Of a DNA stretch of 64,000 nt, positions 9,260 through 59,942 are shown one piece after another; within the stretch, counting starts at the first letter, position 1; each line of letters starts with the position of its first letter. The notes under the pieces were generated by a model that saw nothing but the letters and a program-made list of their open reading frames with translations, searched no databases and was not told where the DNA came from. The position numbers and the translations under genes are program-made. The DNA comes from Acidobacteriaceae bacterium (GTDB lineage Bacteria > Acidobacteriota > Terriglobia > Terriglobales > Acidobacteriaceae), in contig DATDHZ010000080.1 of the NCBI GenBank assembly GCA_036521315.1, positions 116,756 through 180,755 on the forward strand, read 5' to 3'.

Positions 9260-9414
9260 AAGATAGCCAGCGATGCCCGCAAGAGGGGTAGACGAGGGCG
9301 AAAGATCGATCCCGGGTTAACGGATCGCTCTTTATTCTTGGGATAACCCTGCTGTCGATTCCTGTGTGGCTGGCCTGTCGATGCGGCTACAGGAGCGCAT
9401 CTCGAGTTCCCTTC

Positions 9415-44072: not shown

Positions 44073-46263
44073 TCCGTCTCACGCCGCTGCTGCTCGCTGC
44101 GTATTCCGCTCCCTGGTAGGGGAGATTCTCGAGCTGCGCCGCTGCATCAAAGTCGGCGAGCTTTGGAGCGGCGCGCAGCCCGCCGTACAAAGTTGGATCC
44201 ACACCGAAGATCGACTCGATCACAAGGTCGGCGAACGCGCCAGCGGAGATGCAGCACCAGTCCTCGATGTACGGCGCATCCTCCGATGCTTTATGCGCGC
44301 CACCATAGAGAGGCGGGACCACGTCTTCGGTGAAGTGGCCCTGGCCGATCGGTCCTTGCCGGCCTGCCTTTGCTACTTCCGTCAGCCAGGGGGCAATCTG
44401 CTCGCGCCCTTCGCACTTGTATAGGCCTTTGGCGCACATGGGAGGCCACGCAGCGTACGCGCCCAGGCAACTGTGATCCGGGCGGATGTTCCACGTCGCG
44501 TCGGGATCGCCGGCCGACAGCGCGCGCATCCACTTCTTCGACGCGAGCTCTTCGTGGAAGAAGTGCGCCATCTCCGATTTTTGCCGCGCCGTCAGGTCTT
44601 CGCTCATGTTGTCGAGTACGGCAAGGAAGTCGTAGCAGTGCCGCACTTCATTGAAGCTTGCGTCCGGCTGGCCGCAGCGCCACCATCCCTTGCCGTCGAC
44701 GTAGAGCAATCGATTGATGCGGGCGGCGAGATCCTGCGCATCCACCCGCAATGCCTTCGCCTGCTGGCTTTGGCCGCGCCGCTCCAGCAGCTCGCCGACA
44801 AATCGCATGCTGGATACGTTGCCTGCGTTCATCCCCGCCACTTCATGCAGATAAGTGCTCACCACTTCGAGGAGATTCGAAATCTCTCCGTAATCCGCCA
44901 GCCCCGTGTTCGTCTTCACCAGCTTCTTCCAATACGTGGCGTGATCGTGCAGATGGTCGATCACCTTGCGTTCGCCGACCGTCTTGTCGAGCCATGCGAA
45001 ATCCCCGGTCACCCGCAGATAATTCTGCGCGCAGCGCACGATGGCCATGTCGTTGACGCCGTACCAGGGTCCGATCGCATCGCCTGTGATGTAGTCCGTC
45101 GCCAGGTGCTGATGCATATCGCGCTGGAACCAAACCTCCACCAGCCCACGCAGCGGCTGCGGATCGAGCAGGGCGAGGCTCAGGCTGGTCAGCGCTGTGT
45201 CCCAGGGAAAGCTCAGAGTCGGCAGCACGTGGCCGCTGAGCGTCAGGAGGGTTGGGCCATAAGCGGAATCCGGCGATCGTCGCCGCGCCGTCAGCAGCCC
45301 CTTGAACCCGTTGTGGTACAAGTTCCAGAGGGTTTCGTTGTCCGTCTTCAACTGCGGCAGATGACCCGAGAAATCGCTGTTGCCCGGCGTGAACGCGGAC
45401 CGCACCAGGCGGTCGAAGACCGATTCATTGTCGCGGTCGAGCACCGCGAAATTCTCCTGCAGCCGATCATGCAGGCCTTCCGCATCAGACGCGTTCGAGG
45501 CAATCGCCGCTACAAAGTGGAATTCGCGCCGCTCGTCCGGCTGCATGCGCAGCGTGTATCGCAGCATGTTGCCGCCGCGCACTTCCTGTGCCGGAGGATG
45601 AATCCCCTGGGCGCAGGCCGCGGGTGAGTGCTGCGCGGCAAAGGTAATCCGGCCCTGCGCGGCGTTCCAGGTCTGCCGGTTGTCGCCCTCCCCAGGGAGC
45701 TCGTTGAACCAGGTCGTCCCCTTGTGAATGACGCCCGCGCGCATATCGAACCCGAGCGTGACGTCGCGGCTCGTCCCAGCCATGTTGCGCACTACAATGC
45801 TCTGCACCGTGGCGCGCGTATCCGCGGGCAGGAACATCTCGGCGCGAATGAACAGCTCGTCGACGGTCTGTTCCCGCACGACGCGGTGCGGAAACCACTG
45901 GTATGTGACGGCCTGCGCCGGATCATCGGAGATCGAGGCGAGCCTTCCGTTCACAAACAGCTCGCAGGTTGTGAGGTATCCGGGGCTCCATGGAATGCTG
46001 GGAACCCCGCAGCACGCATAGGGCGGAAAGGCGATCGCGCTGATGGCGGAGACGGACTTTACCGTCTGCGCGTAGCCCCAGTCGTTCATCGCGATGGGCA
46101 GGTTGAACAGCTCCATGAATCCGTGCGTCATCCGCACGCTGGCCAGGTCGGCCAGGCCTGGGATCGCAGGACGCGACGTGGGCGAAAACGCGCGCAATGG
46201 TGAAGCGCCCGCAGCGAGCGCCGCCGCGCCCGCCGAGCCTTTGACGAAATCGCGGCGGTTCAT
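44065..46263 (-). CDS. Tat-exported large protein, probably a beta-sandwich + (alpha/alpha)6 glycosidase-like fold; family not recognised.
   Basis: Twin-arginine signal MNRRDFVKGSAGAAALAAGASPLRAF at ATG 46263, preceded by CAGGAGTG. 733 aa. The fold guess rests only on helix-rich C-terminal repeats and sugar-locus context. Confidence 0.45.
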   Translation of the reverse strand: MNRRDFVKGSAGAAALAAGASPLRAFSPTSRPAIPGLADLASVRMTHGFMELFNLPIAMNDWGYAQTVKSVSAISAIAFPPYACCGVPSIPWSPGYLTTCELFVNGRLASISDDPAQAVTYQWFPHRVVREQTVDELFIRAEMFLPADTRATVQSIVVRNMAGTSRDVTLGFDMRAGVIHKGTTWFNELPGEGDNRQTWNAAQGRITFAAQHSPAACAQGIHPPAQEVRGGNMLRYTLRMQPDERREFHFVAAIASNASDAEGLHDRLQENFAVLDRDNESVFDRLVRSAFTPGNSDFSGHLPQLKTDNETLWNLYHNGFKGLLTARRRSPDSAYGPTLLTLSGHVLPTLSFPWDTALTSLSLALLDPQPLRGLVEVWFQRDMHQHLATDYITGDAIGPWYGVNDMAIVRCAQNYLRVTGDFAWLDKTVGERKVIDHLHDHATYWKKLVKTNTGLADYGEISNLLEVVSTYLHEVAGMNAGNVSSMRFVGELLERRGQSQQAKALRVDAQDLAARINRLLYVDGKGWWRCGQPDASFNEVRHCYDFLAVLDNMSEDLTARQKSEMAHFFHEELASKKWMRALSAGDPDATWNIRPDHSCLGAYAAWPPMCAKGLYKCEGREQIAPWLTEVAKAGRQGPIGQGHFTEDVVPPLYGGAHKASEDAPYIEDWCCISAGAFADLVIESIFGVDPTLYGGLRAAPKLADFDAAAQLENLPYQGAEYAASSSGVRRIS

Positions 46264-46288
46264 GGAAATCACTCCTGGAACAGAGAAA

Positions 46289-46313
46289 TGTATGATTCGG
46301 CACAAATCATACA
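46289..46313. promoter_or_regulatory. Perfect 9-bp inverted repeat TGTATGATT-N7-AATCATACA upstream of the Tat-exported protein gene.
   Basis: The arms at 46289-46297 and 46305-46313 are exact reverse complements. Located 26-50 nt upstream of ATG 46263. Confidence 0.4.
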
Positions 46314-46405
46314 GGAATTGGTTCCGCTTTGCGGAGATTCGTTCATACAAGGCGCGAACTCGCCAGCAGCCGATTCGGCGCACTTGCCACACCGCGGCAA
46401 CGCAC

Positions 46406-47251
46406 TCAGACGCGCAGCACTTCGATGCCCAGCTTCTGATAGGGCGCGATCAGTTCATCCGTCGCGCCGCTGTCGGTGATCAGGGTGCGCAGTAAAGTGG
46501 TTTCGCAGATGCGCCAGTTTGCCACGACGTTCAGCTTTGTATGGTCGACGACGGCGATGTGTCGTCGCGCATGGCGTGCCATGGTGGCGTTCAGCTCCGC
46601 TTCATCGGCGTTGAAACAGCTGACGCCCCACTGCGGATCGATGCCGTCGGCGCCCACAAACATGGTGTGAATGAGCATATTCTCAAGGCTGCGAATCGCT
46701 GTCGGCCCCACCAGCGAGAACCATTCACCGTGCAGATGCCCTCCCGTGACGAAGACGTTAATGTCCTTCCGCTTCGAAAGCTCCATCGCGATGTTCGCAG
46801 TGTTTGTGACGACGGTGATTTTGCTGTTGAGCGGCAATCCGCGAATGATCTCCGCCGTGGTTGTGCCTGGCGTGATGGCGATCGTCTCTCCGGAGGTGAT
46901 GAGCGCGGCCGCAGCCCGTCCAATGCGCCGCTTCTCGTTCGCCTGCCGCTCCACCTGCGCTGTGAATGAGCGGTCCTTCTTGAAGGGCTCGTAGAAGAGC
47001 GGCTCGATAGAGACTGCTCCGCCGTGCGTGCGCCGCAGCAGTCCCTGTTGTTCCAGCAAGTCGAGATCGCGCCGGATGGTCACGACAGAAACGCTGAGCA
47101 GTTCGGCCAGCTCGTCGACCACCACCGAGCTGGTGTCCTGCAAAGAAGTCAAAATCGAGTTGATCCGCTGCTGTTGCTTTTCCCGGCTGTGTGATGCTTC
47201 TGCGTTGCCGCCTGCCGGCGTTGCTTTCTTCTTCTTCGCTCGTTTGACCAT
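46406..47251 (-). CDS. DeoR family transcriptional repressor with a Lys-rich N-terminal tail.
   Basis: MVKRAKKKKATPAGG... then VVVDELAELLSVSVVTIRRDLDLLEQQGLLRRTHGGAV (DeoR HTH) and a DeoRC-like C-terminus. ATG 47251 is preferred over ORF-track start 47320. Confidence 0.85.
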   Translation of the reverse strand: MVKRAKKKKATPAGGNAEASHSREKQQQRINSILTSLQDTSSVVVDELAELLSVSVVTIRRDLDLLEQQGLLRRTHGGAVSIEPLFYEPFKKDRSFTAQVERQANEKRRIGRAAAALITSGETIAITPGTTTAEIIRGLPLNSKITVVTNTANIAMELSKRKDINVFVTGGHLHGEWFSLVGPTAIRSLENMLIHTMFVGADGIDPQWGVSCFNADEAELNATMARHARRHIAVVDHTKLNVVANWRICETTLLRTLITDSGATDELIAPYQKLGIEVLRV

Positions 47252-47501
47252 GCCATGCCCTTTCCGGCGCTGCTTATCCCTCTCGCTCGCGAGCTTTTCC
47301 CATCCGAAATCACGACACAACCGAAAACCTTAGAAATCGAACGAGATGTTTATATCGGAAAGTTGCCGTGTTCGAAAGTGACGAAAAGAATCCCGAATGA
47401 AAAGCGGGACTCCGCTCGCCTGCCGGACCGGGGCGGGGAATTCTGAGGCTGGAATCCCGAACTGAGCATGACGGGGATGTAGATTTATTGCTAATTCGGC
47501 A

Positions 47502-47559
47502 AAAACGAACATGACTTATGATTGTTATCGTTGAAAACGAACAAACAATCTGCTACGAT
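47502..47559 (+). promoter_or_regulatory. Direct 10-bp repeats AAAACGAACA (47502-47511, 47534-47543) overlapping a TTGAAA-17-TACGAT promoter of the cupin-PGI operon.
   Basis: TTGAAA 47531-47536 and TACGAT 47554-47559. The -10 ends only 11 nt before ATG 47571. An imperfect complement TGTTATCGTT lies at 47523-47532. Confidence 0.45.
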
Positions 47560-47570
47560 TCCTTCCTGTC

Positions 47571-48158
47571 ATGAAAAGCTCTGCTCCTGGGCCTCCGGCC
47601 GTCCTCGCTCCTCCTGTTTTGCTGGACCTGGCTCGCGGGGTCATGGCCGGCGAGGGGATCATCGAAAGCCGCAAGACCTTCGGCGAATTGGCGAATGTCT
47701 TCCGCGATCGCGCCGCGTACGCGCACTTCGATCCGGCAGGCGAGATCTACCGGGTCCGCTCGTGGATGCCGGTTGTTTCGGGTACTGAGGGCGGTCTATT
47801 CCTGGGCGTGACGGTGCTGCAGCCAGGAAAAGTAGGGGACGAATACTTCATGACGCACGGTCACTTTCACGCGAATCCCACACGCGCCGAATACTACGCC
47901 ACCGTCTCCGGCAGCGGGATGCTTATCCGCATGGATCGGGAGCGCCGCACCTGGGGGGAACCAATGGCTCCCGGTTCCCTGCACTACATTCAGGGCGAGC
48001 ATGCGCATCGCGTCGCCAACACCGGCAGCGTGCCGCTCATCTTCTGGGCGTGCTGGGGCAGCGATGCCGGCTATGACTACGGAACGATTGCCGAACGCGG
48101 CTTCGGAGCCCGCCTGGTGGAGCGCGAGGGCCAGCCGGTGTTCCTCGCCGAAGAGTGA
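47571..48158 (+). CDS. Cupin-type (archaeal-type) glucose-6-phosphate isomerase.
   Basis: TVLQPGKVGDEYFMTHGHFHANPTRAEYYATVSGSGMLI and SDAGYDYGTIAERGFGARLVEREGQPVFL align with Pyrococcus furiosus cPGI (TVLYPGKVGKEFFFTKGHFHAKLDRAEVYVALKGKGGMLL; ADAGHDYGTIAEKGFSKIVIEENGEVKVV) as I recall it. Confidence 0.85.
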   Translation: MKSSAPGPPAVLAPPVLLDLARGVMAGEGIIESRKTFGELANVFRDRAAYAHFDPAGEIYRVRSWMPVVSGTEGGLFLGVTVLQPGKVGDEYFMTHGHFHANPTRAEYYATVSGSGMLIRMDRERRTWGEPMAPGSLHYIQGEHAHRVANTGSVPLIFWACWGSDAGYDYGTIAERGFGARLVEREGQPVFLAEE

Positions 48159-48162: not shown

Positions 48163-48948
48163 GTGACTACGGACCTCTTCGATCCCGGCTTTGCGATCCG
48201 CCTCGACCCCGACAGCCTCGGGTTTCAGTATGGCCCCGGCGTCTTCGGCCCTGCTCCGGAACTGCGACGACTCGACGACATCCGGCCAAGCCTGCGCGAT
48301 CCGCAGTGCAGCGGCCCCGATCCGGTATACGGGATCGCGATGGACGTGGGGAAAGAGGAGGATCGTGCGGAGTTGCAGCGGCGGTCTCTGCTCTTCGGCG
48401 TGGTGGTCTACGCCAGCGGCCGGCTGGGCGAGGAGCCGGTGCGCAGCCAGGGCCACGTCCACGCCATTGCACCGCATTGCGGGTGGTCTACGCCGGAGCT
48501 GTTCGAGATTTGGGAAGGCCGCACCGTCATCTACGCACAGCAATCCGCCGGTGACGATCCCGGCCGCTGCATTGCCGTCGAAGCCGGCCCTGGCGATCAT
48601 GTTGTTGTGCCGCCGGGCTGGGCGCACGCGGTCATCAACGCGAGCGAATCGGAGCGGATGGTCTTTGGCGCGCTTTGCGAACGGCAGTATGGGTTTGTTT
48701 ACGATGAAATCCGCGCCCACGGAGGTCTCGCGTGGTTTCCCCTGCTGCGCGACGGAGGCGTGGAGTGGCAGGCGAACCCGCGGTACGCGTCTTCCCTGCT
48801 GAGCGTTCGCGCCGCACGCCAATATCCGGAGCTCGGAGTGGCTCCGGGCGTGCCGATCTATCGGCAGTTCGAAGATCATCCGGACCGCCTGCAGTGGGTT
48901 TCGGAACCGGCTCGCGCCGCTTCGTTCTGGACCACCCTGGAGCCCTGA
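48163..48948 (+). CDS. Second, divergent cupin-fold glucose-6-phosphate isomerase family (PF06560-like) protein.
   Basis: GTG 48163 lies 5 nt after the upstream stop and is in frame with ORF 48001-48948. GEEPVRSQGHVHAIAPHCGWSTPELFEIWEGRTVIYAQ...GDHVVVPPGWAHAVINASESERMVFGALCERQYGFVYDEI reproduces the HxH...E...H cupin metal-site spacing. Confidence 0.62.
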   Translation: MTTDLFDPGFAIRLDPDSLGFQYGPGVFGPAPELRRLDDIRPSLRDPQCSGPDPVYGIAMDVGKEEDRAELQRRSLLFGVVVYASGRLGEEPVRSQGHVHAIAPHCGWSTPELFEIWEGRTVIYAQQSAGDDPGRCIAVEAGPGDHVVVPPGWAHAVINASESERMVFGALCERQYGFVYDEIRAHGGLAWFPLLRDGGVEWQANPRYASSLLSVRAARQYPELGVAPGVPIYRQFEDHPDRLQWVSEPARAASFWTTLEP

Positions 48949-48955: not shown

Positions 48956-51205
48956 ATGAAAGCTTTCGATCGCCGTACGTTCCTTACCGGCAGCGCCGCC
49001 GCTGCCCTGGTCACCGGGCTCGAACGGCCCGCCTCCGCCGCCCACCAGGGAAGGCACCCTGCGCCAGTCGCGACCGACCAGGCGGACTCGTTCAACGCAG
49101 TCGTGGACTTCCGCTATGCTCCCGCGGATTATCAATCGACGATTTGCTTCCCCGATGATCCCTTCAAGACGCTGGTCGGCAAGTGGGGCGATCTACGCTG
49201 CGACTTTCCCCACGATCAGTTCGCGCCGATCAATCAGTTCGGAACCATCGTGGAGTTCACGCTCTCTGGCATGGGCCGCGATACCTGGGCCGCACAAACG
49301 ATGGAGGCGCCCGGCGTCCCCATTCTCCATACGCGTCTCGAACGGGCCACGGCGACTATCGAGCTGATCGCATTCTGCACGCGCCGCGAAAATGAAGGGC
49401 GCGTCGACAACGTGCTCATGGAGATTCGCGCTCGCGACGAGGACGCAATGGTAACCCCGCTGGTCCGGATCCGCTCCGGCGAGAAATTTCAATGGAAGCC
49501 GACGCCCTCCGGCATTACCAGCGTGACGCGCGGCACAGGGCAGAATCCCTGGATGGTCGCCATCCCGCAGGACAACGCATCGCGTGATGTCTCCTGGTTA
49601 CCGGAGGAAGGCGGCTACCGCCTCACCCTCGAGCATGGAACAGCGAGCCAGACACGCCCGCTGCGCTACCTCTTCCGATTCCCGCAGTCCGCAACCCCCC
49701 CCGGCCTCGACACCTCCGCCACTGCGGACGAACTGCTCGCCGAGGTGCGTTCATGGTGGACCCAGTGGCGCGCATTCAGCGCTCCCGTCTCGTGGTCGAT
49801 CCCAGGCACGCAGGGTGAGTTCCTCACCGCCTGCGCGCGCAATATCCAGCAGGCGCGGGAAGTGAAGAACGGACGCCTCGTCTTCGAAGTCGGCCCCACC
49901 GTCTACCGCGGACTGTGGATCGTCGATGGCAATTTCATTCTCGAAGCCGCGCGCTACCTCGGGTTCGATGAAGCAGCCGACCAGGGCCTGCTTTCGGAGT
50001 GGAATCAGCAGGTCTCCACCGGCCAGATCATCGCGTCGGGCGGCAAGGAGCACTGGAAGGACACGGCGATCGCCATGTTCACACTGGTGCGCGCCTGCGA
50101 GCTGAAGCAGGACTGGTCGCTGCTCCGCCGGCTGGCGCCTAACGTCGGCCACGCCATCGAGTTCCTCATCCAGCTGCGTGACGATGCTCGCAAGGATGAT
50201 TCCCCGAACGGCCGTTACGGCCTCCTGGCGCCTGGATTTCCAGACGGCGGCATCGGCGGCGTCTGCTACGACTTCACCAACACGCTGTGGACGCTGGCCG
50301 GGTTGCGTGCCGTCGCCACCGCGAATCAAAGGCTGCAAATCGCCGACCTGTCGCGCGCCGACGGCTTTTACCGCGAGCTGCGCACCGCTTTCGACGCCGC
50401 CGCGCGCGCAGAAATGGTTCACGACCCGCGTGGCTTCACGTACCTGCCCATGCTCATGCACGACGATCCGCAGATGCATCTGGACCCGTGGGATCGTCCT
50501 CGTCCGCAAAGCGCGCAGTGGGCGCTCTCCCACACCATTTTTCCTGGAGACGTGTTTGCGAAGGATGATCCCGTGGTGCGCGGCCACATCGCGCTCATGC
50601 AGGCCTGCACGCAGGAGGACATTCCCGCGGAAACCGGTTGGCTGCACCACGAGGGCGTGTGGAATTACAACGCGGCGTTCGTGGCGGAAGTTTACCTGTG
50701 GGCCGGAATGCGCGAGTGGGCGCATCGCGCCTTCACCGGATACCTGAATCATGCTTCGCCGCTGCATGCGTGGCGCGAAGAACAGCCTCTGCAGCACGCG
50801 CTGCTCGGAGATTTATGGGGCGATATGCCGCACAACTGGGCCAGCGCGGAATGCATTCGCTATTTGCGCCACCGGCTTGTGCTCGAAGACAGCGAAACGC
50901 TGCGCCTGCTCGAAGGCGTACAGCCGACGGATCTGCTGGATCGCCGTCCCTTTTCTCTCGCTGGATCACCGACCCGCTTCGGCCGCGTGGCGCTTTCCGC
51001 GGAACCTTCAGGAAAGCGCGGATGGAAAGCGCGTTTTACCCGCGAAGCCTCCGCAGCGCCGCCGCAGGCCGTGCGAATCCCAGCCACGCTGGGCGCCGGA
51101 GCCGCCTTCACGCGCGTCGAAGGCGCGAGCACTCGCACACTCGCATCGGGGACGATCAGTATCGACCCTGCCGCAAATTCCTGGACTGCACTCTGGGAAA
51201 GCTGA
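48956..51205 (+). CDS. Tat-exported (alpha/alpha)6-barrel-like protein; putative glycoside hydrolase of unrecognised family.
   Basis: Twin-arginine signal MKAFDRRTFLTGSAAAALVTGLERPASA. Helix-rich repeats follow (GLWIVDGNFILEAARYLG, WKDTAIAMFTLVRACEL, TNTLWTLAGLRAVATA, WNYNAAFVAEVYLWAGM, DMPHNWASAECIRYLRH). Confidence 0.45.
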   Translation: MKAFDRRTFLTGSAAAALVTGLERPASAAHQGRHPAPVATDQADSFNAVVDFRYAPADYQSTICFPDDPFKTLVGKWGDLRCDFPHDQFAPINQFGTIVEFTLSGMGRDTWAAQTMEAPGVPILHTRLERATATIELIAFCTRRENEGRVDNVLMEIRARDEDAMVTPLVRIRSGEKFQWKPTPSGITSVTRGTGQNPWMVAIPQDNASRDVSWLPEEGGYRLTLEHGTASQTRPLRYLFRFPQSATPPGLDTSATADELLAEVRSWWTQWRAFSAPVSWSIPGTQGEFLTACARNIQQAREVKNGRLVFEVGPTVYRGLWIVDGNFILEAARYLGFDEAADQGLLSEWNQQVSTGQIIASGGKEHWKDTAIAMFTLVRACELKQDWSLLRRLAPNVGHAIEFLIQLRDDARKDDSPNGRYGLLAPGFPDGGIGGVCYDFTNTLWTLAGLRAVATANQRLQIADLSRADGFYRELRTAFDAAARAEMVHDPRGFTYLPMLMHDDPQMHLDPWDRPRPQSAQWALSHTIFPGDVFAKDDPVVRGHIALMQACTQEDIPAETGWLHHEGVWNYNAAFVAEVYLWAGMREWAHRAFTGYLNHASPLHAWREEQPLQHALLGDLWGDMPHNWASAECIRYLRHRLVLEDSETLRLLEGVQPTDLLDRRPFSLAGSPTRFGRVALSAEPSGKRGWKARFTREASAAPPQAVRIPATLGAGAAFTRVEGASTRTLASGTISIDPAANSWTALWES

Positions 51206-51206: not shown

Positions 51207-52937
51207 CTAAACGCGCACGCGTGCCTGAATCGTGCCCAGCTCCCGCGCGGGGTTCGGCGTGCAAGGACGAATCGTATAGGGCCCCACCGCGGCCGGGATG
51301 ATGAAAGTCTCCGCATAGTGAACGACAAACGGCGCAAACGCGTCCGTCGGGCTTTCCACCACCGCCGCATCGCCTTCAATCAGATTGAGGACGTGCACGG
51401 TACCCTTCGTATCGTGCGGCACCGTGCCGGTGAACCAGTGGCGTCGCGTCTCAATGAACTCCAGCTCGTGCAGCCCGGTGCGCTCTTCGCGCCAGCCTTC
51501 CCCGCTCGCCGTCGCCTCCACGCGATTGATCAGCGACCGCCGCACCCACTCCGTCGTCCGGCTCCACTGGATATTGGCTTCGCCATACCGCAGATGGATC
51601 GGCCGCGGCCGTCCGTCCAGCCCCACCCGTCCCCAGTCCCACAGCTTGAACGTGAAAATGTACGGCGTGGCGCTGATCTCCAGCACCATGCTGTCCTTGC
51701 CGGAGCAGTGCACTGTGCCCGCGGGAATCAGAAAATGATCGTGCTTCTTCGCCGGAAAACGATTGACGTACTGCCCTGCCGGAAAATCGAAGTCCTCTTC
51801 CTGCGCACGATGCAGATCGCGCAGCATCGCGCTCTTGTCCACGCCTTCCTTCAGCCCCAGATACACGCACGCGCCCGGCTCCGCGTCCAGCATGTAGTAG
51901 CTCTCGTCCTGCGTGTAATCCATCCCGAAGTGCTCGCGAATAAACGACGGCAGCGGATGCACCTGCAGCGACAGATTGCCTCCGCCGACGGTGTCGAGGA
52001 AATCGAATCGAATCGGAAACTCTGCCCCGAAGCGCTCGACGATCACGTTGCCCAGCAGTTCCTGCGGGTGCGCCAGCACCAGATTGATCGACGGAACCTC
52101 CACGCGTTCCGCCCCGAAGCCCAGCAGCAGGCTGTTCTCCTCCGGAACGCAGTCGAAGCACCAAGCATGATTCGGCGCATCGCCCGCCGGAACACCGCAC
52201 ACCCGCTCCATCCAGTGCCCGCCCCACGGCCCCGGATCAAAGAACGGAACGACGCGGAACGGTCGCCGGACAACGTCGCGCAGGCAGCGCCGGAACACCT
52301 CACCGCTGATCGCCTTCGGGTACCCGGGCACACTCGTATCAAGCAGCACGCCGATGTGGTCGAAGAGGCGCATTTTCAGACGGTCTGCTGAGCGCCAGTC
52401 GACAAAAAATGATCGCTTGTACTTGAGGGACGGCGTCTCTTCCAAATTTTCCGCGCCGAAGTTGCCGCTCTCATTGCGCCGCTGCCGCATCTGGATTTCC
52501 CAGCGCGCCAGATCGGCGTACGCCAGCACATCGGAAGCCGGGCAGACCAGCGAAGCCCCCGTTCCAATCACCACCACAGCCGCATCATCCTGCGCGCATT
52601 GTTTCTGCGCTTCCGCCAGTTTCTCCGCGTCGAGGAAATCGGCAATCTCGATCGTGTTCATCCGGCCGAAGACCGGATCGCCGCCCAGCACCGGCTCCAG
52701 CATTGCGCCGATTTCTTCAGGTGAACGCAGCAGCGCATTCGCATCGATGAAGCAGGCTTCCGGCAGCGCCTGCCGCAGCCCGCGCTCCACTTCCGCGAGA
52801 TGCACGCCCGGATAGCACTCCACCACGAGTTTGCCGCGCGCTCCGACGCGCTCGTGCAAGTGCGCACCAATGCGCGCCCAGCCGGTCAGGCACTCGCTGG
52901 CGCTGCCCGCCTCCACGCATGGAAACCTATCGTACAA
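51207..52937 (-). CDS. Class I mannose-6-phosphate isomerase (cupin) with a ~230-aa N-terminal extension.
   Basis: FFDPGPWGGHWM, FPIRFDFLDTVGGGNLSLQVHP, QDESYYMLDA and IPAGTVHCSG match type I PMI motifs. TTG start at 52937 with GGAGAG 7 nt upstream. 11-nt overlap with the ROK gene stop. Confidence 0.72.
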   Translation of the reverse strand: MYDRFPCVEAGSASECLTGWARIGAHLHERVGARGKLVVECYPGVHLAEVERGLRQALPEACFIDANALLRSPEEIGAMLEPVLGGDPVFGRMNTIEIADFLDAEKLAEAQKQCAQDDAAVVVIGTGASLVCPASDVLAYADLARWEIQMRQRRNESGNFGAENLEETPSLKYKRSFFVDWRSADRLKMRLFDHIGVLLDTSVPGYPKAISGEVFRRCLRDVVRRPFRVVPFFDPGPWGGHWMERVCGVPAGDAPNHAWCFDCVPEENSLLLGFGAERVEVPSINLVLAHPQELLGNVIVERFGAEFPIRFDFLDTVGGGNLSLQVHPLPSFIREHFGMDYTQDESYYMLDAEPGACVYLGLKEGVDKSAMLRDLHRAQEEDFDFPAGQYVNRFPAKKHDHFLIPAGTVHCSGKDSMVLEISATPYIFTFKLWDWGRVGLDGRPRPIHLRYGEANIQWSRTTEWVRRSLINRVEATASGEGWREERTGLHELEFIETRRHWFTGTVPHDTKGTVHVLNLIEGDAAVVESPTDAFAPFVVHYAETFIIPAAVGPYTIRPCTPNPARELGTIQARVRV

Positions 52938-53859
52938 AGCCGCTCTCCTGCTGAAACAAAGGAACCACGCCGAGCAGCGCCGCGTCGTTGCCCAGCCGCG
53001 CCGCCCGCACCGCCGGATTGCCCCATGGCGTCCACGCGTAGCGATTCACGTAGTCCTGAATGAAGGGAAGAATCACATCGCCGCTCTTCATCACCCCTCC
53101 GCCGTAGAGCAGCACGTCGGGATCGAAGGCGTGCACGGCCGCGACCGCCGCGGCGCCCCACACGCTCAGACAATGCTGTTGCACTTCCTGCGCGACCCGA
53201 TCGCCGGCCGCCGCGCAGGCAAATACGTTTTCGAAATTGATCTCCAGCCCCCGCAGCGCGCTCGCGGCAAAGCCCGGCCACTCCGCGCATACCAGCGGCA
53301 GCGACCAGCCTGACGCTTCCGACTCCGCACATCCGATCGCTCCACAGGTACACTTGCGGCCGTTGAACTTGACAGGGACATGACCGCCCAGCACGCCTGC
53401 CTGGCCGTGTTTGCCCTGGAGCGGCCGTCCATCCATCATGGCGACGCCACCGATGCCCGTGCCGAGCGTGAACATCACCACGTCGGTTTCGCCCTGGGCC
53501 GCGCCCGCCGAACACTCGCCCAGCAGCGCCAGGCGCGCATCGTTCTCAAGATTCAGTGGCAGGCCGAACTGGCTCTGCGCCCACGCGCGCAGATCGAGGT
53601 CCACGGCGTCCACAAATTTTCCGTTGGTCGACGAGACGCGCGAGTTGCGCGCATCCACGAGCCCGCAGAATCCGAATCCCACACCCTGCGCGCTGCGCTC
53701 GTCGTCGAGCCGGCGCAGCACATCCGCTATCTCCGGGAGAATCGTACCCAGCGCGACGCCGTCACCGAATGTGATCGCGTCCCGCGCCACGATCGCCTGA
53801 TCTTCGACGAGCGCGCATGCGGCGTGGCTGCCTCCCAGATCAACCGCCAGGATTCTCAT
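52927..53859 (-). CDS. ROK family sugar kinase.
   Basis: MRILAVDLGGSHAACALV (ATP-binding DxGG), GTGIGGV, and the zinc motif CTCGAIGCAESEASG. ATG 53859 is preferred over ORF-track start 53997. Confidence 0.85.
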   Translation of the reverse strand: MRILAVDLGGSHAACALVEDQAIVARDAITFGDGVALGTILPEIADVLRRLDDERSAQGVGFGFCGLVDARNSRVSSTNGKFVDAVDLDLRAWAQSQFGLPLNLENDARLALLGECSAGAAQGETDVVMFTLGTGIGGVAMMDGRPLQGKHGQAGVLGGHVPVKFNGRKCTCGAIGCAESEASGWSLPLVCAEWPGFAASALRGLEINFENVFACAAAGDRVAQEVQQHCLSVWGAAAVAAVHAFDPDVLLYGGGVMKSGDVILPFIQDYVNRYAWTPWGNPAVRAARLGNDAALLGVVPLFQQESGFVR

Positions 53860-53996: not shown

Positions 53997-54021
53997 ATCA
54001 TAGCAGGTAAATGTTCGTTTT
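53997..54021 (-). promoter_or_regulatory. AAAACGAACAT-TTAC-CTGCTATGAT module upstream of the ROK-PMI operon, near-identical to the cupin-PGI promoter module.
   Basis: The minus-strand reading of 54021-53997 is AAAACGAACATTTACCTGCTATGAT. Compare AAAACGAACAAACAATCTGCTACGAT at 47534-47559. Confidence 0.45.
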
Positions 54022-54158: not shown

Positions 54159-55535
54159 TTAGCCTTCCCACTCGTGCTGAATCTGTTCGAGGGTCTTGCC
54201 CCGCGTCTCCGGCACCATCTTCCAGATAAACACGAACGCGACTGCCGAGAGCGCCGCGTAGATGCCAAAGGTGCCGCTCACCCCCAGCGCGCGGATGAGT
54301 GAAAGAAACGTCAGCGTCACCACGAGCGTTCCGGTCCAGAGCGTCGAGGTCGCAATGGATGCGGCGCGCCCGCGAATCTTCGTCGGAAAGATCTCGGAGA
54401 TGACCACCCAGGGAATCGGGCCCATGGCAAATGCGAAGAATCCTGTGTAGCCGAGAATGCACGCGAGCACGACAAACGGCGAGACACCGGAAATGCGATC
54501 CATGATGACAAACAGCAACAGTGTGACGGTCATCCCGGCCGAAGCGGTCAGGAGCATCGTTCGCCGGCCCCAGCGATCGAGGCAATACAGCGCAATCAGG
54601 GTGCACGCCAGATTCGTGCCTCCGATGATCACGTTGGCCATCAGCGCCGTTCCCGTCGTTTGTCCGCTGAAGTGCTGGGTGATGAGGATCGATCCGTAAT
54701 ACAGCACGGTATTGATGCCAGTGATCTGGCACAGAATTGCTAATCCCAGCGCGATGGTCAGCGGCCGCCGCATCGCCGGCGAGAATACCTCGCTCCACGA
54801 TCCTTCTTCGCTCGACGCAGCCTCTTCGACAGCCTTTACTTCGACATCAGCCTGCAGAGCGCCGTAAATGCGCGCCAGGACGCGGCGCCCCTTCTCGCGC
54901 TGCCCATGGCTGATGAGCCAGCGCGGGCTCTCAGGAATGAACAGCAGCCCCAAAAAGAAACCAATCGCCGGTAGCGCGGCAACGCCGAGCATCCACCGCC
55001 AGCTGGCATCGCCCAGCCCGGCCAGGCCCCAGCCCACCACATAGGCCACCAGAATGCCCACCACAATCGCGAGCTGGTTCATCGACACGAGGCGCCCCCG
55101 ATTGCGTGCCGGCGCGACTTCCGCGATGTAGACCGGCGTCAGCACCGATGAGAGCCCGATGGCCAATCCGCCTGCCAGCCTGCCGATAGCGAAGACCGTG
55201 ACGGATTGTGCCAGGGCCGCCACGACCGTTGACCCTGCAAACAGGATGGCCGCAATCAGCAGCGAAGCACGCCGCCCCAGGCGATCCCCTATCAGGCTCG
55301 CGCCCGCCGCTCCGAGAAGGCAGCCCAGCAGCAGCGCGCTCGCCGCCATCTCTGTCTGGACCGTTGAGAGCGCGAAGTCGCGCTGCAGAAAAAGCAGAAC
55401 CCCGTTGATCACGGCCGTGTCAAACCCGAAGAGAAATCCTGAGATCGCGGCGACGACAGCGAGGAACAGAACGTAAATCGGCGACTTGGCCTTCGCGCCG
55501 CCAGGCGTTGTATCGACTACCGCGGAAATGTGCAT
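54159..55535 (-). CDS. MFS sugar porter family transporter (sugar:H+ symporter).
   Basis: Twelve hydrophobic segments; GDRLGRR, PESPRWL and PETRGKTLEQI signatures. Confidence 0.92.
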   Translation of the reverse strand: MHISAVVDTTPGGAKAKSPIYVLFLAVVAAISGFLFGFDTAVINGVLLFLQRDFALSTVQTEMAASALLLGCLLGAAGASLIGDRLGRRASLLIAAILFAGSTVVAALAQSVTVFAIGRLAGGLAIGLSSVLTPVYIAEVAPARNRGRLVSMNQLAIVVGILVAYVVGWGLAGLGDASWRWMLGVAALPAIGFFLGLLFIPESPRWLISHGQREKGRRVLARIYGALQADVEVKAVEEAASSEEGSWSEVFSPAMRRPLTIALGLAILCQITGINTVLYYGSILITQHFSGQTTGTALMANVIIGGTNLACTLIALYCLDRWGRRTMLLTASAGMTVTLLLFVIMDRISGVSPFVVLACILGYTGFFAFAMGPIPWVVISEIFPTKIRGRAASIATSTLWTGTLVVTLTFLSLIRALGVSGTFGIYAALSAVAFVFIWKMVPETRGKTLEQIQHEWEG

Positions 55536-55682
55536 CTTCTGCCCCGTAGTCTGGATATATGAACGATTTGTTTATATACGAAAGCGGAGGAGTTGCGAAA
55601 CAAGGAAAAACATTCAAGCCGCGGAGCCGGCGCCAGGTTCTGTCCATTCTCTTTCGAACGCCACCACCGCGGTCGCCGACAG

Positions 55683-56480
55683 CTAGCTCACACCAAGGCC
55701 GGCCAGCAATCCGCCATCCACCAGAAAATCGCTGCCCGTGCAGAAAGCCGCGCGATCCGATGCAAGGAACGCTGCCAGCTCCGCGATCTCTTCCGGCGTG
55801 CCGATACGGCCCAGCGGATGCGCCGCCCCGAAACGCGCGAACACTTCGTGCGTGGGCACGCCGGGGGAAAAGTGCGCGGCCGAGGCGGCCAGCATCGGCG
55901 TCCGCACCGATCCGGGGCTGATGGAGTTCACGCGAATGGCATCCTTCGCATGGTCGAGCGCCAGGGCCCGCGTCAGACTGTGGATCGCTCCCTTCGACGT
56001 GGCATAGGCCGCTACTCCCTTTTGGCACGCGTAGCCCTGCACCGAGGCAAGATTCAGGATGCATCCGCCGCCACGTTTCCGCATCACGGGGATCACCGCC
56101 CGCGCCATCAGATACACGCTGCCCACGTTGATGGCCATGCAGCGATTCCAGGTTTCAGGGTCCGTCTCCACCACGTCGCCGAACGGATGAATGGCCGCCG
56201 CATTCACCAGAATGTCAATGCCGCCCATCTGCTGCGCTGCTCGCTGCACGGCGCTTTCAACCGCCTGCGCATCGGCCACGTCGCAACGTTCCGCAACGAC
56301 CACGTTGCCCTGATCTTTGGCGAGCGACGCCAGTTCGCGATTGCCGGCGTCATCGATGCCGAGAGCCGTCACCTGCGCGCCGCCCGCAGCCAGGCGGAGC
56401 GCAATGGCTCGACCAATGCCGGTGGTGCCCGTCACCAGCGCGGTCTTTCCTGCGAATTCATTTGTCTCGACCATGCTCAC
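55683..56480 (-). CDS. Classical short-chain dehydrogenase/reductase (SDR), substrate unknown.
   Basis: TALVTGTTGIGRAIA (TGxxxGxG), NAAA, catalytic YATSKGAI. Its start overlaps the uxuA stop. Confidence 0.88.
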   Translation of the reverse strand: MSMVETNEFAGKTALVTGTTGIGRAIALRLAAGGAQVTALGIDDAGNRELASLAKDQGNVVVAERCDVADAQAVESAVQRAAQQMGGIDILVNAAAIHPFGDVVETDPETWNRCMAINVGSVYLMARAVIPVMRKRGGGCILNLASVQGYACQKGVAAYATSKGAIHSLTRALALDHAKDAIRVNSISPGSVRTPMLAASAAHFSPGVPTHEVFARFGAAHPLGRIGTPEEIAELAAFLASDRAAFCTGSDFLVDGGLLAGLGVS

Positions 56481-57691
56481 AATTCACCTCGCCCGTCCTT
56501 CGACACGCGCAGTTCGGGAACGGCATACTGCAACCCCCGAATCGCGCCGCGCAGCTCCGCCAATCCCTTCAGTCGTCCCACAAACGAATAACCCGCATTC
56601 CCCGGCTTGCCGATATCGTCTCCCAACTGATGCCCATGATCCGGCCGCATGGGAATCTCCCAGTCGCCGCGGCCCTGCGCCGCTCTCCGCCGCTCCTCTT
56701 CGAGCATCACGCGAACAATGCCCACCATATCGGAGCTCCCCGACAGGTGCTCCGCCTCATGAAACGAACCGTCGGCCTCGCGCTGCACCTGGCGCAGATG
56801 CAGGAAGTGGATGCGCGGTCCGAATTCACGCGCCATCGCCGGCAGATTGTTGTCCCCGCGGGATCCAAGGGAGCCCACGCAAAACGTCAACCCGTTGGCA
56901 GGGGCATCGTATCCCGCGAGAATCGCCCTCAGATCGTCCGCGGTCGAAACCACGCGCGGCAATCCGTACAGCGAAAAGGGCGGATCGTCGGGGTGGATTG
57001 CCAGAACCAGGCCCAACTGCTCCGCTACAGGAACCACTTCGCGCAAAAACTCGACCAGGTTCGCGCGCAGATCCTCTGCGGTCATGCCATCGTAGGCCGC
57101 AATCGCCGCCCGCATGGATTCGCGATCGTACGACGACTCCGATGCGGAAAGTCCCGCAATCAGGTTTTTCTCCAGCAAATCTTTCTGCGCCTCGCTCATG
57201 TGCGCGAAGCGCGCCCGCGCCGCCTGCACGCGGTCCGGCGTGTAGCTGTCCTCCGCATGGCGCCGCTTGAGCAGGAACAAGTCGTAGGCGGCATGATCAA
57301 TCGCATCGAATCGGACCGCGTATCCAGTCGATGGCAGCCGCCACGCGATGTCGGTCCGCACCCAGTCCACTACCGGCATGAAGTTGTAGGCGACGATCTT
57401 CACACCAATCTGCGCAATCGCGGCGAGCGAATCCTTCCACGCGCCAATGGCTTTCCGACGCTCGCCCGTCCGCAGCTTGATGGAGTTGTGCATGGGGATA
57501 CTCTCCACAATCGACCACTCCATGCCTGCTGCTGTGATCGCGTCTTTCCGTTTCTGCAGTTCGTCCAGGGGCCACGCCTCTCCGCGATAGAGGTGGTGCA
57601 ACGCAGTGACTATCCCCATTGCGCCCGCCTGCCTCGCGTTGTGCAGCGGGACCGGGTCCTCAGGACCAAACCAGCGCCAGGTCTCCTTCAT
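56477..57691 (-). CDS. uxuA: Mannonate dehydratase.
   Basis: MKETWRWFGPEDPVPLHNARQAGAMGIVTALHH closely parallels the E. coli UxuA N-terminus ([33 protein letters not shown]). Length 404 aa. Confidence 0.9.
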   Translation of the reverse strand: MKETWRWFGPEDPVPLHNARQAGAMGIVTALHHLYRGEAWPLDELQKRKDAITAAGMEWSIVESIPMHNSIKLRTGERRKAIGAWKDSLAAIAQIGVKIVAYNFMPVVDWVRTDIAWRLPSTGYAVRFDAIDHAAYDLFLLKRRHAEDSYTPDRVQAARARFAHMSEAQKDLLEKNLIAGLSASESSYDRESMRAAIAAYDGMTAEDLRANLVEFLREVVPVAEQLGLVLAIHPDDPPFSLYGLPRVVSTADDLRAILAGYDAPANGLTFCVGSLGSRGDNNLPAMAREFGPRIHFLHLRQVQREADGSFHEAEHLSGSSDMVGIVRVMLEEERRRAAQGRGDWEIPMRPDHGHQLGDDIGKPGNAGYSFVGRLKGLAELRGAIRGLQYAVPELRVSKDGRGEL

Positions 57692-58629
57692 GCTTCCCTG
57701 CCCCGCGCTCGATCGCCGGTCGCCGCTGTTACCGGCTCGATTCTGGAACGGTATTTCAATTGGCCACGAATTCCGGCGCGCACGCGATAGAGCGGACCTC
57801 CCACAAACACGCTCTTCGGATCGTATCCCTTGGGCGCGAGCACCACCGCGTTGGTCTGCGCGGCCGAGGTCACGTAAATCTCATCCAGTTCCGGCCCTCC
57901 GAACGCCACCGAGGAAGTCTGCTTCGCCTGAAAATCCAGGCGCCGCTCTCGCTTGCCGTCCGGATCGAATCGCGACACGCATCCGCCGAACCAGTGCGCG
58001 CACCAAACGTACCCTTCAGCATCGACGCACAGACCATCGGGTATGCCCTCGCTCCGATCGATCCGCGCAAACACCCGGCGGTTCTGCAGGGCGCCGTCAC
58101 TGCGCCGCCAGTCGTATGCATAAATCACCCGCGCCACCGTGTCAGCGAAATACATCGTCGCGCCATCCGGCGAGAACGCCAAGCCGTTCGAGAAGCAGAT
58201 GCCGTCATCCGCCAGGTGCACCGTCCCATCGCGATCCACGCGAAAGAGAAAGCTCGGCGCCGACCTGCCCTGCTCATCCAGGTGCCACGATCCCGAGTAC
58301 ACACGACCCTCCGGATCGGCAGCGCAGTCGTTCATCACGCATTCCTGGCCATCCGCTTCGTTTGCCAGCAGCAGCGCATCCTCACCGGGACGCCACAGCC
58401 AAATTCCGTCGCTGTTCGTCACGACAAATCCGCCATCCTCCTGACGACTGAACCCTCCCACCTGAAAGCCATCGCTGAGCCGCTCGTGGCGCTGTTCGCG
58501 CCACAAATAGCGAAAGAACCGGCGGCCCGTGATGTCCGTCCAGTAGAGCGCCTGTTCGCGCTCGTCCCACAGCGGTCCTTCGCCGCACAGGTTGCCTTCA
58601 TCAGCAATGATTTCAATGTCCATCGTCAT
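57688..58629 (-). CDS. SMP-30/gluconolactonase/LRE family lactonase (six-bladed propeller).
   Basis: NLCGEGPLWDEREQALYWTDI, NGLAFSPDG, PDGLCVDAEGYVW. ATGA overlap with the uxuA start. Confidence 0.85.
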   Translation of the reverse strand: MTMDIEIIADEGNLCGEGPLWDEREQALYWTDITGRRFFRYLWREQRHERLSDGFQVGGFSRQEDGGFVVTNSDGIWLWRPGEDALLLANEADGQECVMNDCAADPEGRVYSGSWHLDEQGRSAPSFLFRVDRDGTVHLADDGICFSNGLAFSPDGATMYFADTVARVIYAYDWRRSDGALQNRRVFARIDRSEGIPDGLCVDAEGYVWCAHWFGGCVSRFDPDGKRERRLDFQAKQTSSVAFGGPELDEIYVTSAAQTNAVVLAPKGYDPKSVFVGGPLYRVRAGIRGQLKYRSRIEPVTAATGDRARGREA

Positions 58630-58742
58630 AGTAGAAAGCGTCCCCGGTATACGGTCTGCCGCGTTGGCGTGTCAACCAACGCCCGACGCGCAGGCGATGC
58701 CATGCGGTGATCACGCCACCTTCAGAGGATAATGTTCGCTGT

Positions 58743-59942
58743 ATGAGTACGCAGAAAGTCGGGGTGAGAAGAGGCCGTTGGCGGAATCGCCCGTGCTGCA
58801 TTCTGAGCAACGACATCGTGGAGCTCACTCACCTGACCGGCGGCGGCCAAATTCCCGATTATCATTTTCTCGACGCGCCGACCCTCAATCCCTTCTGGAT
58901 CCCGCAATGGAGGCTCCGGGATCCGGTGCTCTTTCGCGCCGCGTGCGATGAGGCGACGTTCGGCCCGGAGCCCGTCGGCAAGTTGCTCAGCGGAATCGCC
59001 GGGCACAGCCTCTGTCTCGGGCTGTACGGCATGCCATCGGACGAAGAGATCGCCGCCGGCGCAGTGCTCCATGGCGAAGCCGGTGTGCGCCGCTGGACCG
59101 CGTCTCTGCGGTCTGGGCGGGACGAAGGCTACCTGCGCTTCTCCGTCCGCCTGCCTGCGTTCGGCCTCGTTTTCACGCGCGAACTTTCTCTGCGCACTGG
59201 CGAGTCGGTCATTCAGGTGCGCGAAGCCGTTCGCAATCTGCTGGACGCCGATCAATTCATCCAGTGGCAGCAGCACGCGGTGCTCGGTCCACCGTTCCTG
59301 GATGCGGCTGAATGTGTGATCACGCTGCCTGGTCTGCGAGGCATCACCGATCCCGGCGCTTACGAGGGCCACCCCGCGCTCGCCCCCGATTCGGAGTTCA
59401 CATGGCCTGCTGCGCCGGCCGTGGGCGGCGGCTCCGTCGACCTGCAGTATCCGTGCCAAACGCCTGGCCGCGGCTTTGTCGCGGGTATTCAGATCGATCC
59501 TCGCCGGGAACATGGGTTCGCCTGCGCGGTCAATCCGGCGGAGCGCCTGGCTTTTGGGTACATCTTTCGGCGTTCGCAGTTTCCGTGGGTCACTCTTTGG
59601 GAAGAAAACTGCACTCGCTTGGCTCCGCCGTGGGCCGGCCGCGAGCAAGCTCGTGCCTTTGAGTTTGGGGTGAGCCCTCTGCCCATTGGCCGCGCCGAAA
59701 CGCTGCGCCGCGGCGAAGCTTTCGGCACGCCCACCCTGCTCCGTGTCCCCGCTCGGGCCGCGGTCCATGCCGCCTGGGCCATGTTCTTGTGCCGCGTTCC
59801 ACATAGTACGCGCCGCGTTAACGACATCGTCTGCCATCCCAACCGGCTGTGCATCACCACCGACAGCACCGCCGAACTCACGATTCCGGCGGGTGGCATC
59901 GGCGAATTCCTGAATGGGCCTGCGCCGCGGTCGACAAGTTAG
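58743..59942 (+). CDS. Hypothetical protein, tentatively of the aldose-1-epimerase (galactose mutarotase)-like fold.
   Basis: 400-aa ORF divergent from the lactonase operon. Only a weak pattern (GAVLHGEAGVRRW...) recalls the mutarotase HG...W region. Coding status is supported by length and codon bias, not by motifs. Confidence 0.4.
   Translation: MSTQKVGVRRGRWRNRPCCILSNDIVELTHLTGGGQIPDYHFLDAPTLNPFWIPQWRLRDPVLFRAACDEATFGPEPVGKLLSGIAGHSLCLGLYGMPSDEEIAAGAVLHGEAGVRRWTASLRSGRDEGYLRFSVRLPAFGLVFTRELSLRTGESVIQVREAVRNLLDADQFIQWQQHAVLGPPFLDAAECVITLPGLRGITDPGAYEGHPALAPDSEFTWPAAPAVGGGSVDLQYPCQTPGRGFVAGIQIDPRREHGFACAVNPAERLAFGYIFRRSQFPWVTLWEENCTRLAPPWAGREQARAFEFGVSPLPIGRAETLRRGEAFGTPTLLRVPARAAVHAAWAMFLCRVPHSTRRVNDIVCHPNRLCITTDSTAELTIPAGGIGEFLNGPAPRSTS

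Follow-up and report, generated by a model that had tools for sequence, protein, structure and literature searches.

Comparative genomics points to a probable, mannoside-linked oxidative route from free D-mannose to 2-keto-3-deoxygluconate in Acidobacteriaceae

What supplies D-mannonate to a D-mannonate dehydratase (UxuA) whose gene lies between those of a lactonase and a short-chain dehydrogenase/reductase (SDR)? The question is raised by positions 55,683 to 59,942 of a 64,000-nucleotide (nt) stretch of contig DATDHZ010000080.1 (G000:C80:116756-180755), which we call the window, from an Acidobacteriaceae bacterium (assembly GCA_036521315.1, genome G000 below). Textbook mannose catabolism proceeds via mannose-6-phosphate. 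Here we conclude that the lactonase-UxuA-SDR operon, together with a divergent gene for a mutarotase-fold protein and a gene for a transporter of the major facilitator superfamily (MFS), probably encodes an oxidative route from free D-mannose to 2-keto-3-deoxygluconate (KDG). An earlier interpretation of the same DNA, the sequence-only reading, had proposed that mannose is converted to mannonolactone by the SDR, to mannonate by the lactonase and to KDG by UxuA. Comparative genomics supports this order, with substrates assigned from the genes, and is the strongest evidence for an oxidative mannose route.

Genes in the window were called with guidance from GC content at third codon positions (GC3) and identified by Pfam and NCBIfam profile scans. 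Three genes on the minus strand make up the operon: the first encodes an SMP30/SGL lactonase of 313 amino acids (aa) (57688..58629; PF08450, 247.6 bits against a cut-off of 26.3), the second the 404-aa UxuA (56477..57691; TIGR00695 equivalog, 442.7 bits against a cut-off of 199.55; PF03786, 353.8 bits) and the third a classical SDR of 265 aa (55683..56480; PF13561, 223.8 bits). The sequence-only reading had joined these three genes by ATGA-type overlaps. This holds for the lactonase stop and UxuA start, which share ATGA (57691-57688); the UxuA stop and SDR start share GTGA instead (56480-56477), with an alternative ATG two codons in, at 56474. The three genes occur together as an operon in 22 orthologous loci, and their overlaps are conserved: the lactonase/UxuA overlap of -4 is kept in 19 of these loci, and in most the junction of UxuA and SDR is -8, -4 or a gap of at most 12 nt. 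A promoter-like element precedes the lactonase gene (58646..58675, minus strand; TTGACA at 58675-58670, an 18-nt spacer and TATACC at 58651-58646), and its form, TTGACA-spacer-(C)GTATAC(C/G)G, is conserved in most of the 22 loci. Since overlaps and promoter are kept across orthologous loci, we regard the operon as a translationally coupled unit, conserved together with a promoter of its own. Close relatives are without exception Acidobacteriaceae metagenome-assembled genomes.

The wider distribution of the module was examined in 121 Acidobacteriaceae genomes, about one per genus. The 19 UxuA neighbourhoods besides that of the window were compared with the window proteins and Pfam, and neighbours outside the window were annotated by tblastn with the window proteins and by Pfam scans of selected open reading frames (ORFs). 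Full-length UxuA was found in 19 of the 121 genomes, at 20 loci, and the uronate isomerase UxaC in 61. An SDR resembling AldT, the aldohexose dehydrogenase of Thermoplasma acidophilum, adjoins UxuA at 13 of the 20 loci; an SDR of the hexuronate type does so at only one (G109). A lactonase adjoins UxuA at 11 loci and comes from three lineages: the window type (SMP30a) in G000 and G049, a second type (SMP30b) in G038, G012, G052, G086, G047, G100 and G010 (contig C7), and a seven-bladed PF10282 lactonase, unrelated to SMP30, in G013 and G057. SMP30b and SMP30a share 28-33% identity and are as distant from each other as both are from the Caulobacter xylonolactonase XylC. The presence of three lactonase lineages at SDR-UxuA pairs looks like non-orthologous displacement of a needed function, and the repeated recruitment of different lactonases to this pair is expected if the intermediate is a lactone. 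In two genomes that are 97-98% complete (G012 and G086), UxuA, SDR and SMP30b occur without uxaC, so that mannonate there cannot derive from uronate isomerisation.

Mannosidase genes flank the module in four genera: the G106 operon has two that are GH38-like, G083 encodes a GH38 protein of 1241 aa, G038 a protein that is GH38-like, and G052 a GH2 beta-mannosidase carrying mannosidase Ig domains. The G106 operon further encodes a sugar porter of the MFS, a UxuA paralog and an RraA-like protein with an aldolase fold, and a homolog of the window's mutarotase-fold protein lies between its AldT-like SDR and its UxuA. In the window, the gene for a 458-aa MFS transporter of the sugar-porter family (54159..55535, minus strand; TIGR00879, 353.4 bits against a cut-off of 237.8; PF00083, 375 bits) follows that of the SDR after a gap of 147 bp, an interval in which a consensus scan gave no convincing intrinsic terminator. 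Beyond it lie genes for a ROK-family kinase and a phosphomannose isomerase (PMI)-like protein; all three had been read at these places before; profile scans agree for the porter and the kinase, and the PMI-like protein has a weak match to solved PMI structures. In 16 of the 22 window-type loci, as in G083, the SDR gene is followed by ROK and PMI-like genes. The identity of UxuA implies that the product of the upstream steps is D-mannonate, and to our knowledge only D-mannono-lactones yield D-mannonate on hydrolysis. Taken together, the AldT-like SDR, the mutarotase-fold protein, the porter for neutral sugars and the neighbouring mannosidases all point to free D-mannose as the starting sugar.

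A pair of genes for an RraA-like protein and a UxuA paralog, the latter a partial profile match of 160-176 bits, was also seen beside UxuA-SDR modules in four other genera (L079:6085-7960, L069:3710-5688, L073:13260-17061 and L078:12460-15293) and is absent from the window genome.

The mutarotase-fold protein is encoded divergently from the operon, on the plus strand, in an ORF (58707-59942) whose likely start is the ATG at 58743, giving a protein of 399 aa (58743..59942). Its DUF4432 match is sub-threshold (26.5 bits against a cut-off of 32.5). An AlphaFold2 model of the protein (pLDDT 93.2) had as its top Foldseek matches 3ty1 (E 9e-15, TM-score 0.64-0.66), 3mwx, 4bze (B. subtilis GalM), 2htb and 1nsu, with probability 1.00 and TM-scores of up to 0.66-0.73. 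The mutarotase-like pattern once seen in the letters of this gene is thus matched by the predicted fold, that of aldose-1-epimerases and galactose mutarotases. Residues H88, H110, H178, E287, E288 and E307 are invariant in 34 homologs and stand in motifs that are GalM-like by sequence, which makes them candidates for the catalytic His/His/Glu set. We propose that the protein is an aldose (mannose) 1-epimerase. In genomes whose operon has no lactonase, such as G106, it might itself handle the lactone, a role to which we give lower odds. A 42%-identical homolog lies near a gene of the enolase superfamily (MR_MLE) and genes for 421- and 657-aa proteins without a Pfam match (L066/L067:5312-11273); the context of another distant homolog was uninformative.

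The SDR has generic public annotations ('SDR family oxidoreductase' or 'meso-butanediol dehydrogenase') and carries the motifs TGxxxGIG (17-23), D43/D44, N118, S146, Y159 and K163. Among solved structures its closest relative is 3vtz, a protein of Thermoplasma volcanium (187 bits, 43% identity). For a maximum-likelihood tree we combined the window SDR with every UxuA-adjacent SDR identified in the family, with AldT, 3vtz and 4dqx, with two SDRs encoded beside lactonases and with the paralogs from the window genome. In this tree UxuA-adjacent SDRs from 12 genera fall into two clades with good support. The window SDR belongs to a clade (100/100) in which the UxuA-adjacent SDRs of eight genomes, from seven genera, are grouped; with those of G100 and G047 added, the clade has support of 96/94. 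AldT and 3vtz are grouped with the UxuA-adjacent SDRs of G106 and G038 (support 96/87), and the top three matches of the G106 protein in the Protein Data Bank (PDB) are 3vtz and AldT (212 and 184 bits). We propose that the window SDR is an AldT-like, NAD-dependent D-mannose 1-dehydrogenase.

A UxuB-type mannonate/fructuronate oxidoreductase, which the sequence-only reading had kept as an alternative for the SDR, is disfavoured by both the tree and the profile ranks. The window SDR lies near AldT and 3vtz, whereas the hexuronate-type SDRs, namely the UxuA-adjacent SDR of G109 and one encoded elsewhere in the window genome on contig C86, form a distant clade (100/98); PRK08277, which the C86 protein matches with 227.7 bits, is not among the best 25 NCBIfam matches of the window SDR. 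We therefore rejected a UxuB-like identity.

The gene inventory of the genome bears on the same alternative. The window holds no uxaC, as had been read from it earlier, and a search of the rest of the genome found one, on contig C86 (G000:C86:59396-60850) and clustered with its own SDR; for this reason its absence from the window is not evidence for an oxidative route. The C86 hexuronate cluster (C86:54716-60850, outside the window; L001 covers part of it) encodes a divergent UxaC, which scores 248.8 bits with PF02614 where the family's canonical type reaches about 640 bits, an ExuT-like MFS transporter, a nickel-pincer protein of the LarA type named 'putative hexonate epimerase' (NF052594, 643.6 bits), a UxaE-like protein without an NCBIfam match and the SDR, which is of the KduD/Gno/D-mannonate-oxidoreductase type. 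It contains no dehydratase, neither UxuA nor the altronate dehydratase UxaA, and no UxaA was found in the genome, in which UxuA is single-copy by tblastn. These facts, and the existence of SDR-type UxuB enzymes, are what an Ashwell-type hexuronate pathway in the window can draw on, with a UxuB-like SDR, UxuA as the last step and a lactonase that opens uronolactones. We consider it improbable, in view of the C86 cluster's own PRK08277-type SDR, the separate clade of the window SDR, the two genomes in which the module occurs without uxaC, and the neutral-sugar porter, mutarotase fold and mannosidase neighbours. For the oxidative mannose route, the enzymes that would take KDG further, for which the sequence-only reading had suggested a search of the genome, are both present on C86, as a kdgK-like PfkB kinase gene and eda (C86:143141-145085; Eda TIGR01182, 197.9 bits against a cut-off of 156). 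An enolase-superfamily search for a ManD-type enzyme gave five matches in the genome, all at 26% identity or less to the queries.

Across the family, UxaC falls into two classes, canonical (about 610-680 bits) and divergent (about 240-290 bits), and full-length UxuA is absent from 46 of the 61 uxaC-positive genomes. In G109 (L075), UxuA lies beside an ExuT-like porter and the hexuronate-type SDR in a genome without uxaC, which suggests direct uptake of fructuronate or mannonate.

The best solved relatives of the window lactonase are Caulobacter XylC (7plb, 131 bits) and regucalcin. Residues E17, N100, N148 and D198 stand in the motifs CGEGP, MNDC, FSNGL and IPDGL, and correspond to the metal and substrate residues of SMP30 proteins by motif rather than by structure. 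We propose that the enzyme is a D-mannono-lactone hydrolase. Aldono-1,4-lactones open slowly at moderate temperature, and a dedicated lactonase would therefore be expected to matter more in a mesophile. SMP30 proteins in animals act on gulonolactone, and on this precedent the lactonase might instead open L-gulono-1,4-lactone, the SDR then oxidising L-gulonate to D-fructuronate and a second reductase elsewhere supplying mannonate to UxuA. A pathway that leads from L-gulonate by way of fructuronate and mannonate to KDG has been proven for Haemophilus influenzae (PMC5788505). Such a route needs two dehydrogenases, of which the operon has one, and would depend on the UxuB-like SDR of another cluster; the module is also kept in genomes without uxaC-cluster genes, and the mannosidase, mutarotase and sugar-porter context would go unexplained, so that we regard it as very improbable.

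Orthologs of the lactonase were tried as a guide to its substrate and set aside: homologs at 68% identity or less, together with two at 70-72% (L021 and L024), are not beside UxuA and gave no substrate clue. In L021 and L024 (around 6000-12400) the homologs lie beside an SDR, two CoA-transferases (PF01144 and PF02515), a PIG-L deacetylase and a TonB-type receptor; the neighbours of the L041 homolog are an SDR, an EamA transporter and a LacI regulator.

For the route as a whole, we infer substrates, cofactor and regulation from gene identities, coupling, folds, phylogeny, synteny and inventory. Mannose would enter via the MFS porter, its anomers would be equilibrated by the mutarotase-fold protein, and the AldT-like SDR would oxidise C1 with NAD+ to give D-mannono-lactone. 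The SMP30 lactonase would open the ring to D-mannonate, UxuA would dehydrate mannonate to KDG, and KdgK and Eda, encoded on the other contig, would phosphorylate KDG and cleave it to pyruvate and glyceraldehyde-3-phosphate. A parallel branch of ROK kinase, PMI-like protein and cupin-type phosphoglucose isomerase (PGI) would take mannose to fructose-6-phosphate, and both branches are probably under a neighbouring DeoR-type repressor.

The genes of this second branch continue downstream of the porter. The ROK-family sugar kinase (52927..53859, minus strand; PF00480, 162.5 bits) lies in an ORF that extends to 53997, with a probable true start at the ATG at 53859 (MRILAVDLGGS). It has the ATP motif DLGGS and the zinc motif CTCGAIGCAE (CxCGxxGCxE), and no helix-turn-helix or other DNA-binding domain. 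It reads AGVLGGH at the place of what we take to be the usual ROK sugar kinase motif, AGExGH; because the sugar-binding Glu thus seems to be missing, its substrate may be unusual. The PMI-like protein (51207..52937, minus strand; 576 aa) consists of a C-terminal cupin resembling type I PMI and an unexplained N-terminal domain of 230 aa. It has no match in Pfam or NCBIfam; residues 224-450 match the PMI structures 1zx5 (E 2.6e-10) and 1qwr (E 9.6e-9), a weak resemblance, and the motifs QVHP, ESYY and AGTVH contain the putative zinc ligands Q325, H327, E345 and H410. At least 8000 candidates match the protein at E<=1e-5, and in NCBI and JGI records the family bears the name 'class I mannose-6-phosphate isomerase'. 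Two tandem genes on the plus strand (47571-48158 and 48163-48948) encode cupin-type proteins resembling glucose-6-phosphate isomerase (PF06560 GPI, 67.4 and 63.0 bits).

The candidate repressor is a DeoR-family protein (46406..47320, minus strand; PF00455, 156.8 bits; PF08220, 67.9 bits), which may tentatively be assigned to sites of the form AAAWCGWWCAT; in G083, too, a DeoR gene is found, between those for the ROK kinase and the PMI-like protein. Upstream of the cupin-PGI, ROK, MFS and lactonase genes the 22 loci show a 5-8-fold enrichment of this motif, about 5-fold in the case of the lactonase. In the window it occurs as AAATCGTTCAT 24 nt upstream of the MFS start codon (55559..55569, minus strand), as AAAACGAACAT in the ROK promoter (54011..54021, minus strand) and as AAAACGAACAT and AAAACGAACAA upstream of the cupin-PGI operon (47502..47544, plus strand). 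The ROK promoter module ATGTTCTTTT-N7-AAAACGAWCAT-N6-TGGTATGAT is conserved in orthologous loci. The exact 11-mer AAAACGAACAT has three copies in the 5.25-Mb genome, two of them at this locus, and 4 of the 27 genome sites matching AAAWCGWWCAW lie within 8 kb of it. Motif counts over the whole window were not above chance, and only the positional clustering, genome-wide rarity and cross-species conservation of the motif appear meaningful. A genome motif scan found no copy near kdgK-eda or the uxaC cluster. The third copy of AAAACGAACAT, at G000 C78:54822, may mark a further regulon member.

Several findings weigh against a route dedicated to the oxidation of mannose. First, the operator-like copy upstream of the window lactonase promoter, AGCGAACAT (58732..58740, minus strand), is degenerate; related loci have the better copies AAACGATCAT and AAATCGATCAT at the same place. 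Second, with a phosphorylative mannose route adjoining, an oxidative one would be redundant. Third, because UxuA is single-copy and the genome lacks UxaA, the window UxuA is probably shared with the hexuronate catabolism of the C86 uxaC cluster; a single UxuA can serve as the junction of two feeder pathways. Fourth, the transporter of the G057 module is closer to ExuT-type acid-sugar porters (29%). An acid-sugar porter would suit a reductive mannuronate route, in which the lactonase acts on D-mannurono-6,3-lactone, the SDR reduces mannuronate to mannonate (EC 1.1.1.131-type) and UxuA forms KDG, a three-step logic that reaches mannonate without need of uxaC. The nearest characterised relatives of the SDR are aldose 1-dehydrogenases, the window transporter is a sugar-porter-family MFS protein, genes for ROK, PMI-like, GH38 and GH2 beta-mannosidase proteins accompany the module, and no polysaccharide lyase or uronate-specific gene was found in the loci scanned; a mannuronate route is accordingly one that we hold to be improbable, about as much so as the hexuronate pathway.

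The remaining findings concern specificity. Fifth, the SDR matches AldT itself (2dtd) with only 135 bits, similar to its matches to butanediol and hydroxybutyrate dehydrogenases, and the window-type clade, a neighbour of the AldT clade in the tree, joins it weakly (93/30). Sixth, an invariant NAAAIHPFG in window-type SDRs puts a His opposite the Glu of the AldT motif NNAGIE, a position at which an intermediate SDR group carries GIQ(H/R)YG. We take this Glu to be Glu84, the residue that presumably contacts the C2 hydroxyl of mannose (Yasutake et al. 2007). With His in place of the AldT-type Glu, SDR homology is not proof of specificity. Seventh, the lactonase homologs with 70-72% identity in L021 and L024 sit in contexts without UxuA, and since these contexts are unrelated the specificity of the lactonase is not fixed. 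SMP30 lactonases are promiscuous, and AldT-type enzymes reportedly oxidise several aldohexoses, in work ascribed to Nishiya in 2004. A broad aldose dehydrogenase and lactonase might accordingly act on several aldohexoses (glucose, galactose and others), with only the mannose-derived fraction passing through UxuA; the His-for-Glu change at the proposed C2-OH ligand and the close lactonase homologs in other contexts both fit this view. We judge it unlikely, if the least so of the alternatives, given the tight, conserved translational coupling to UxuA, the mannosidase neighbours and the lack of a gluconate or galactonate dehydratase in the loci examined.

Next to the cupin-PGI genes, the window encodes a Tat-signal protein with a glycosidase-like fold (48956..51205, plus strand; 749 aa). 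It has 912 representative homologs and no Pfam match. Its AlphaFold2 model (pLDDT 90.7) consists of a beta-sandwich, an (alpha/alpha)6 barrel and a second beta-sandwich, for which Foldseek returned GH133, GH63, GH94, GH78, GH95 and GH15 at TM-scores of about 0.5, with no specific family or specificity. On this model it is a candidate for a new glycoside-hydrolase-like family and possibly a glycan-trimming enzyme that feeds the locus. A second Tat-signal protein (44065-46392, minus strand; 775 aa) matches cellobionic acid phosphorylase 4zle only faintly (E 0.042) and is unrelated to the first (BLASTP E 0.78); PDB sequence searches with both proteins gave nothing usable. The window of this high-GC genome also encodes an ADOP permease.

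Beyond the window, we lean, with rather less assurance than for the operon itself, towards a real, mannoside-fed oxidative D-mannose pathway in Acidobacteriaceae and, by the look of other loci, in many bacteria, with a lactonase recruited at least three times, a DUF4432-type mutarotase-fold enzyme and a co-regulated kinase/isomerase branch. If true, this would be the first oxidative hexose route via UxuA found to work in vivo. It would give functions to two unannotated protein families, correct the annotation of the SDR ('meso-butanediol dehydrogenase' or 'SDR family oxidoreductase') and of the mutarotase-fold protein ('hypothetical'), add a pathway to carbon-use models of soil bacteria and provide mesophilic enzymes for the conversion of mannose to KDG.

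Among known systems, the Ashwell hexuronate pathway (UxaC, UxuB, UxuA, KdgK and Eda) has UxuA, KdgK and Eda in common with the proposed route, and the genome has uxaC. It differs in that the window operon is without uxaC or a UxuB-type reductase, and the lactonase and mutarotase have no role in it. The Weimberg/Dahms D-xylose pathway of Caulobacter crescentus (XylB, the SMP30 lactonase XylC, and XylD) likewise places a dehydrogenase, a lactonase and a dehydratase in one operon, as is the logic of oxidative aldose modules of the Weimberg, Dahms or De Ley-Doudoroff type, and XylC is the closest solved relative of the window lactonase. The proposed substrate here is a hexose rather than a pentose, the dehydratase UxuA is a xylose-isomerase-like TIM barrel rather than a member of the IlvD/EDD family, and KDG would pass to KdgK and Eda, whereas the Caulobacter product goes to 2-oxoglutarate.

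Full-text literature searches found an oxidative mannose route only for Thermoplasma, in vitro, and for haloarchaea and Coxiella, from genomes, and they found no bacterial mannonolactonase. In Thermoplasma acidophilum, AldT (Ta0754) and the mannonate dehydratase ManD (Ta0753) are encoded by adjacent genes and convert mannose to KDG in vitro, lactone hydrolysis being taken as spontaneous at 50 C in the passages concerned (PMC6901390; Kopp et al. 2019 cited there). For haloarchaea, a genomics-only proposal combines an AldT-like oxidoreductase, a mannonate dehydratase and KDG enzymes; the genes lie in a mannanase cluster with an RraA-like gene, and the dehydratase is labelled manD, its family not being stated in the sections that describe it (PMC10963439). 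An RraA-like gene is also found in the acidobacterial genomes G106, G038, G013 and G086. A further genomics-only proposal of mannose oxidation, with the same kinds of enzyme, concerns CBU_1275-1277 of Coxiella burnetii (bioRxiv 10.64898/2026.05.14.724635). Unlike the window module, neither genomic proposal mentions a dedicated lactonase or mutarotase in the parts that set out the route.

The closest parallel is the Thermoplasma pair. There an SDR aldohexose dehydrogenase, and here a proposed one, adjoins a mannonate dehydratase, some acidobacterial UxuA-adjacent SDRs share a clade with AldT, and the chemistry that we propose, with substrates deduced from genes, is the same. The window SDR differs from AldT in the His for the Glu of NNAGIE and is 43% identical to the T. 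volcanium homolog. The archaeal cluster, in the account drawn on here, is without a dedicated lactonase, mutarotase or transporter, and its route ends, on the same account, in a KDG aldolase (non-phosphorylative), whereas the window genome has KdgK and Eda. The dehydrogenase-lactonase-dehydratase logic and the AldT-ManD pair thus appear to be what was known; a bacterial lactonase, the mutarotase-fold protein, the transporter, the link to mannosidases and the parallel phosphorylative branch appear to be new. The loci described here would be a bacterial, mesophilic version of the archaeal route in abundant soil Acidobacteria, linked to mannosidases and with the proposed transporter, mutarotase, dehydrogenase, lactonase and dehydratase steps all encoded.

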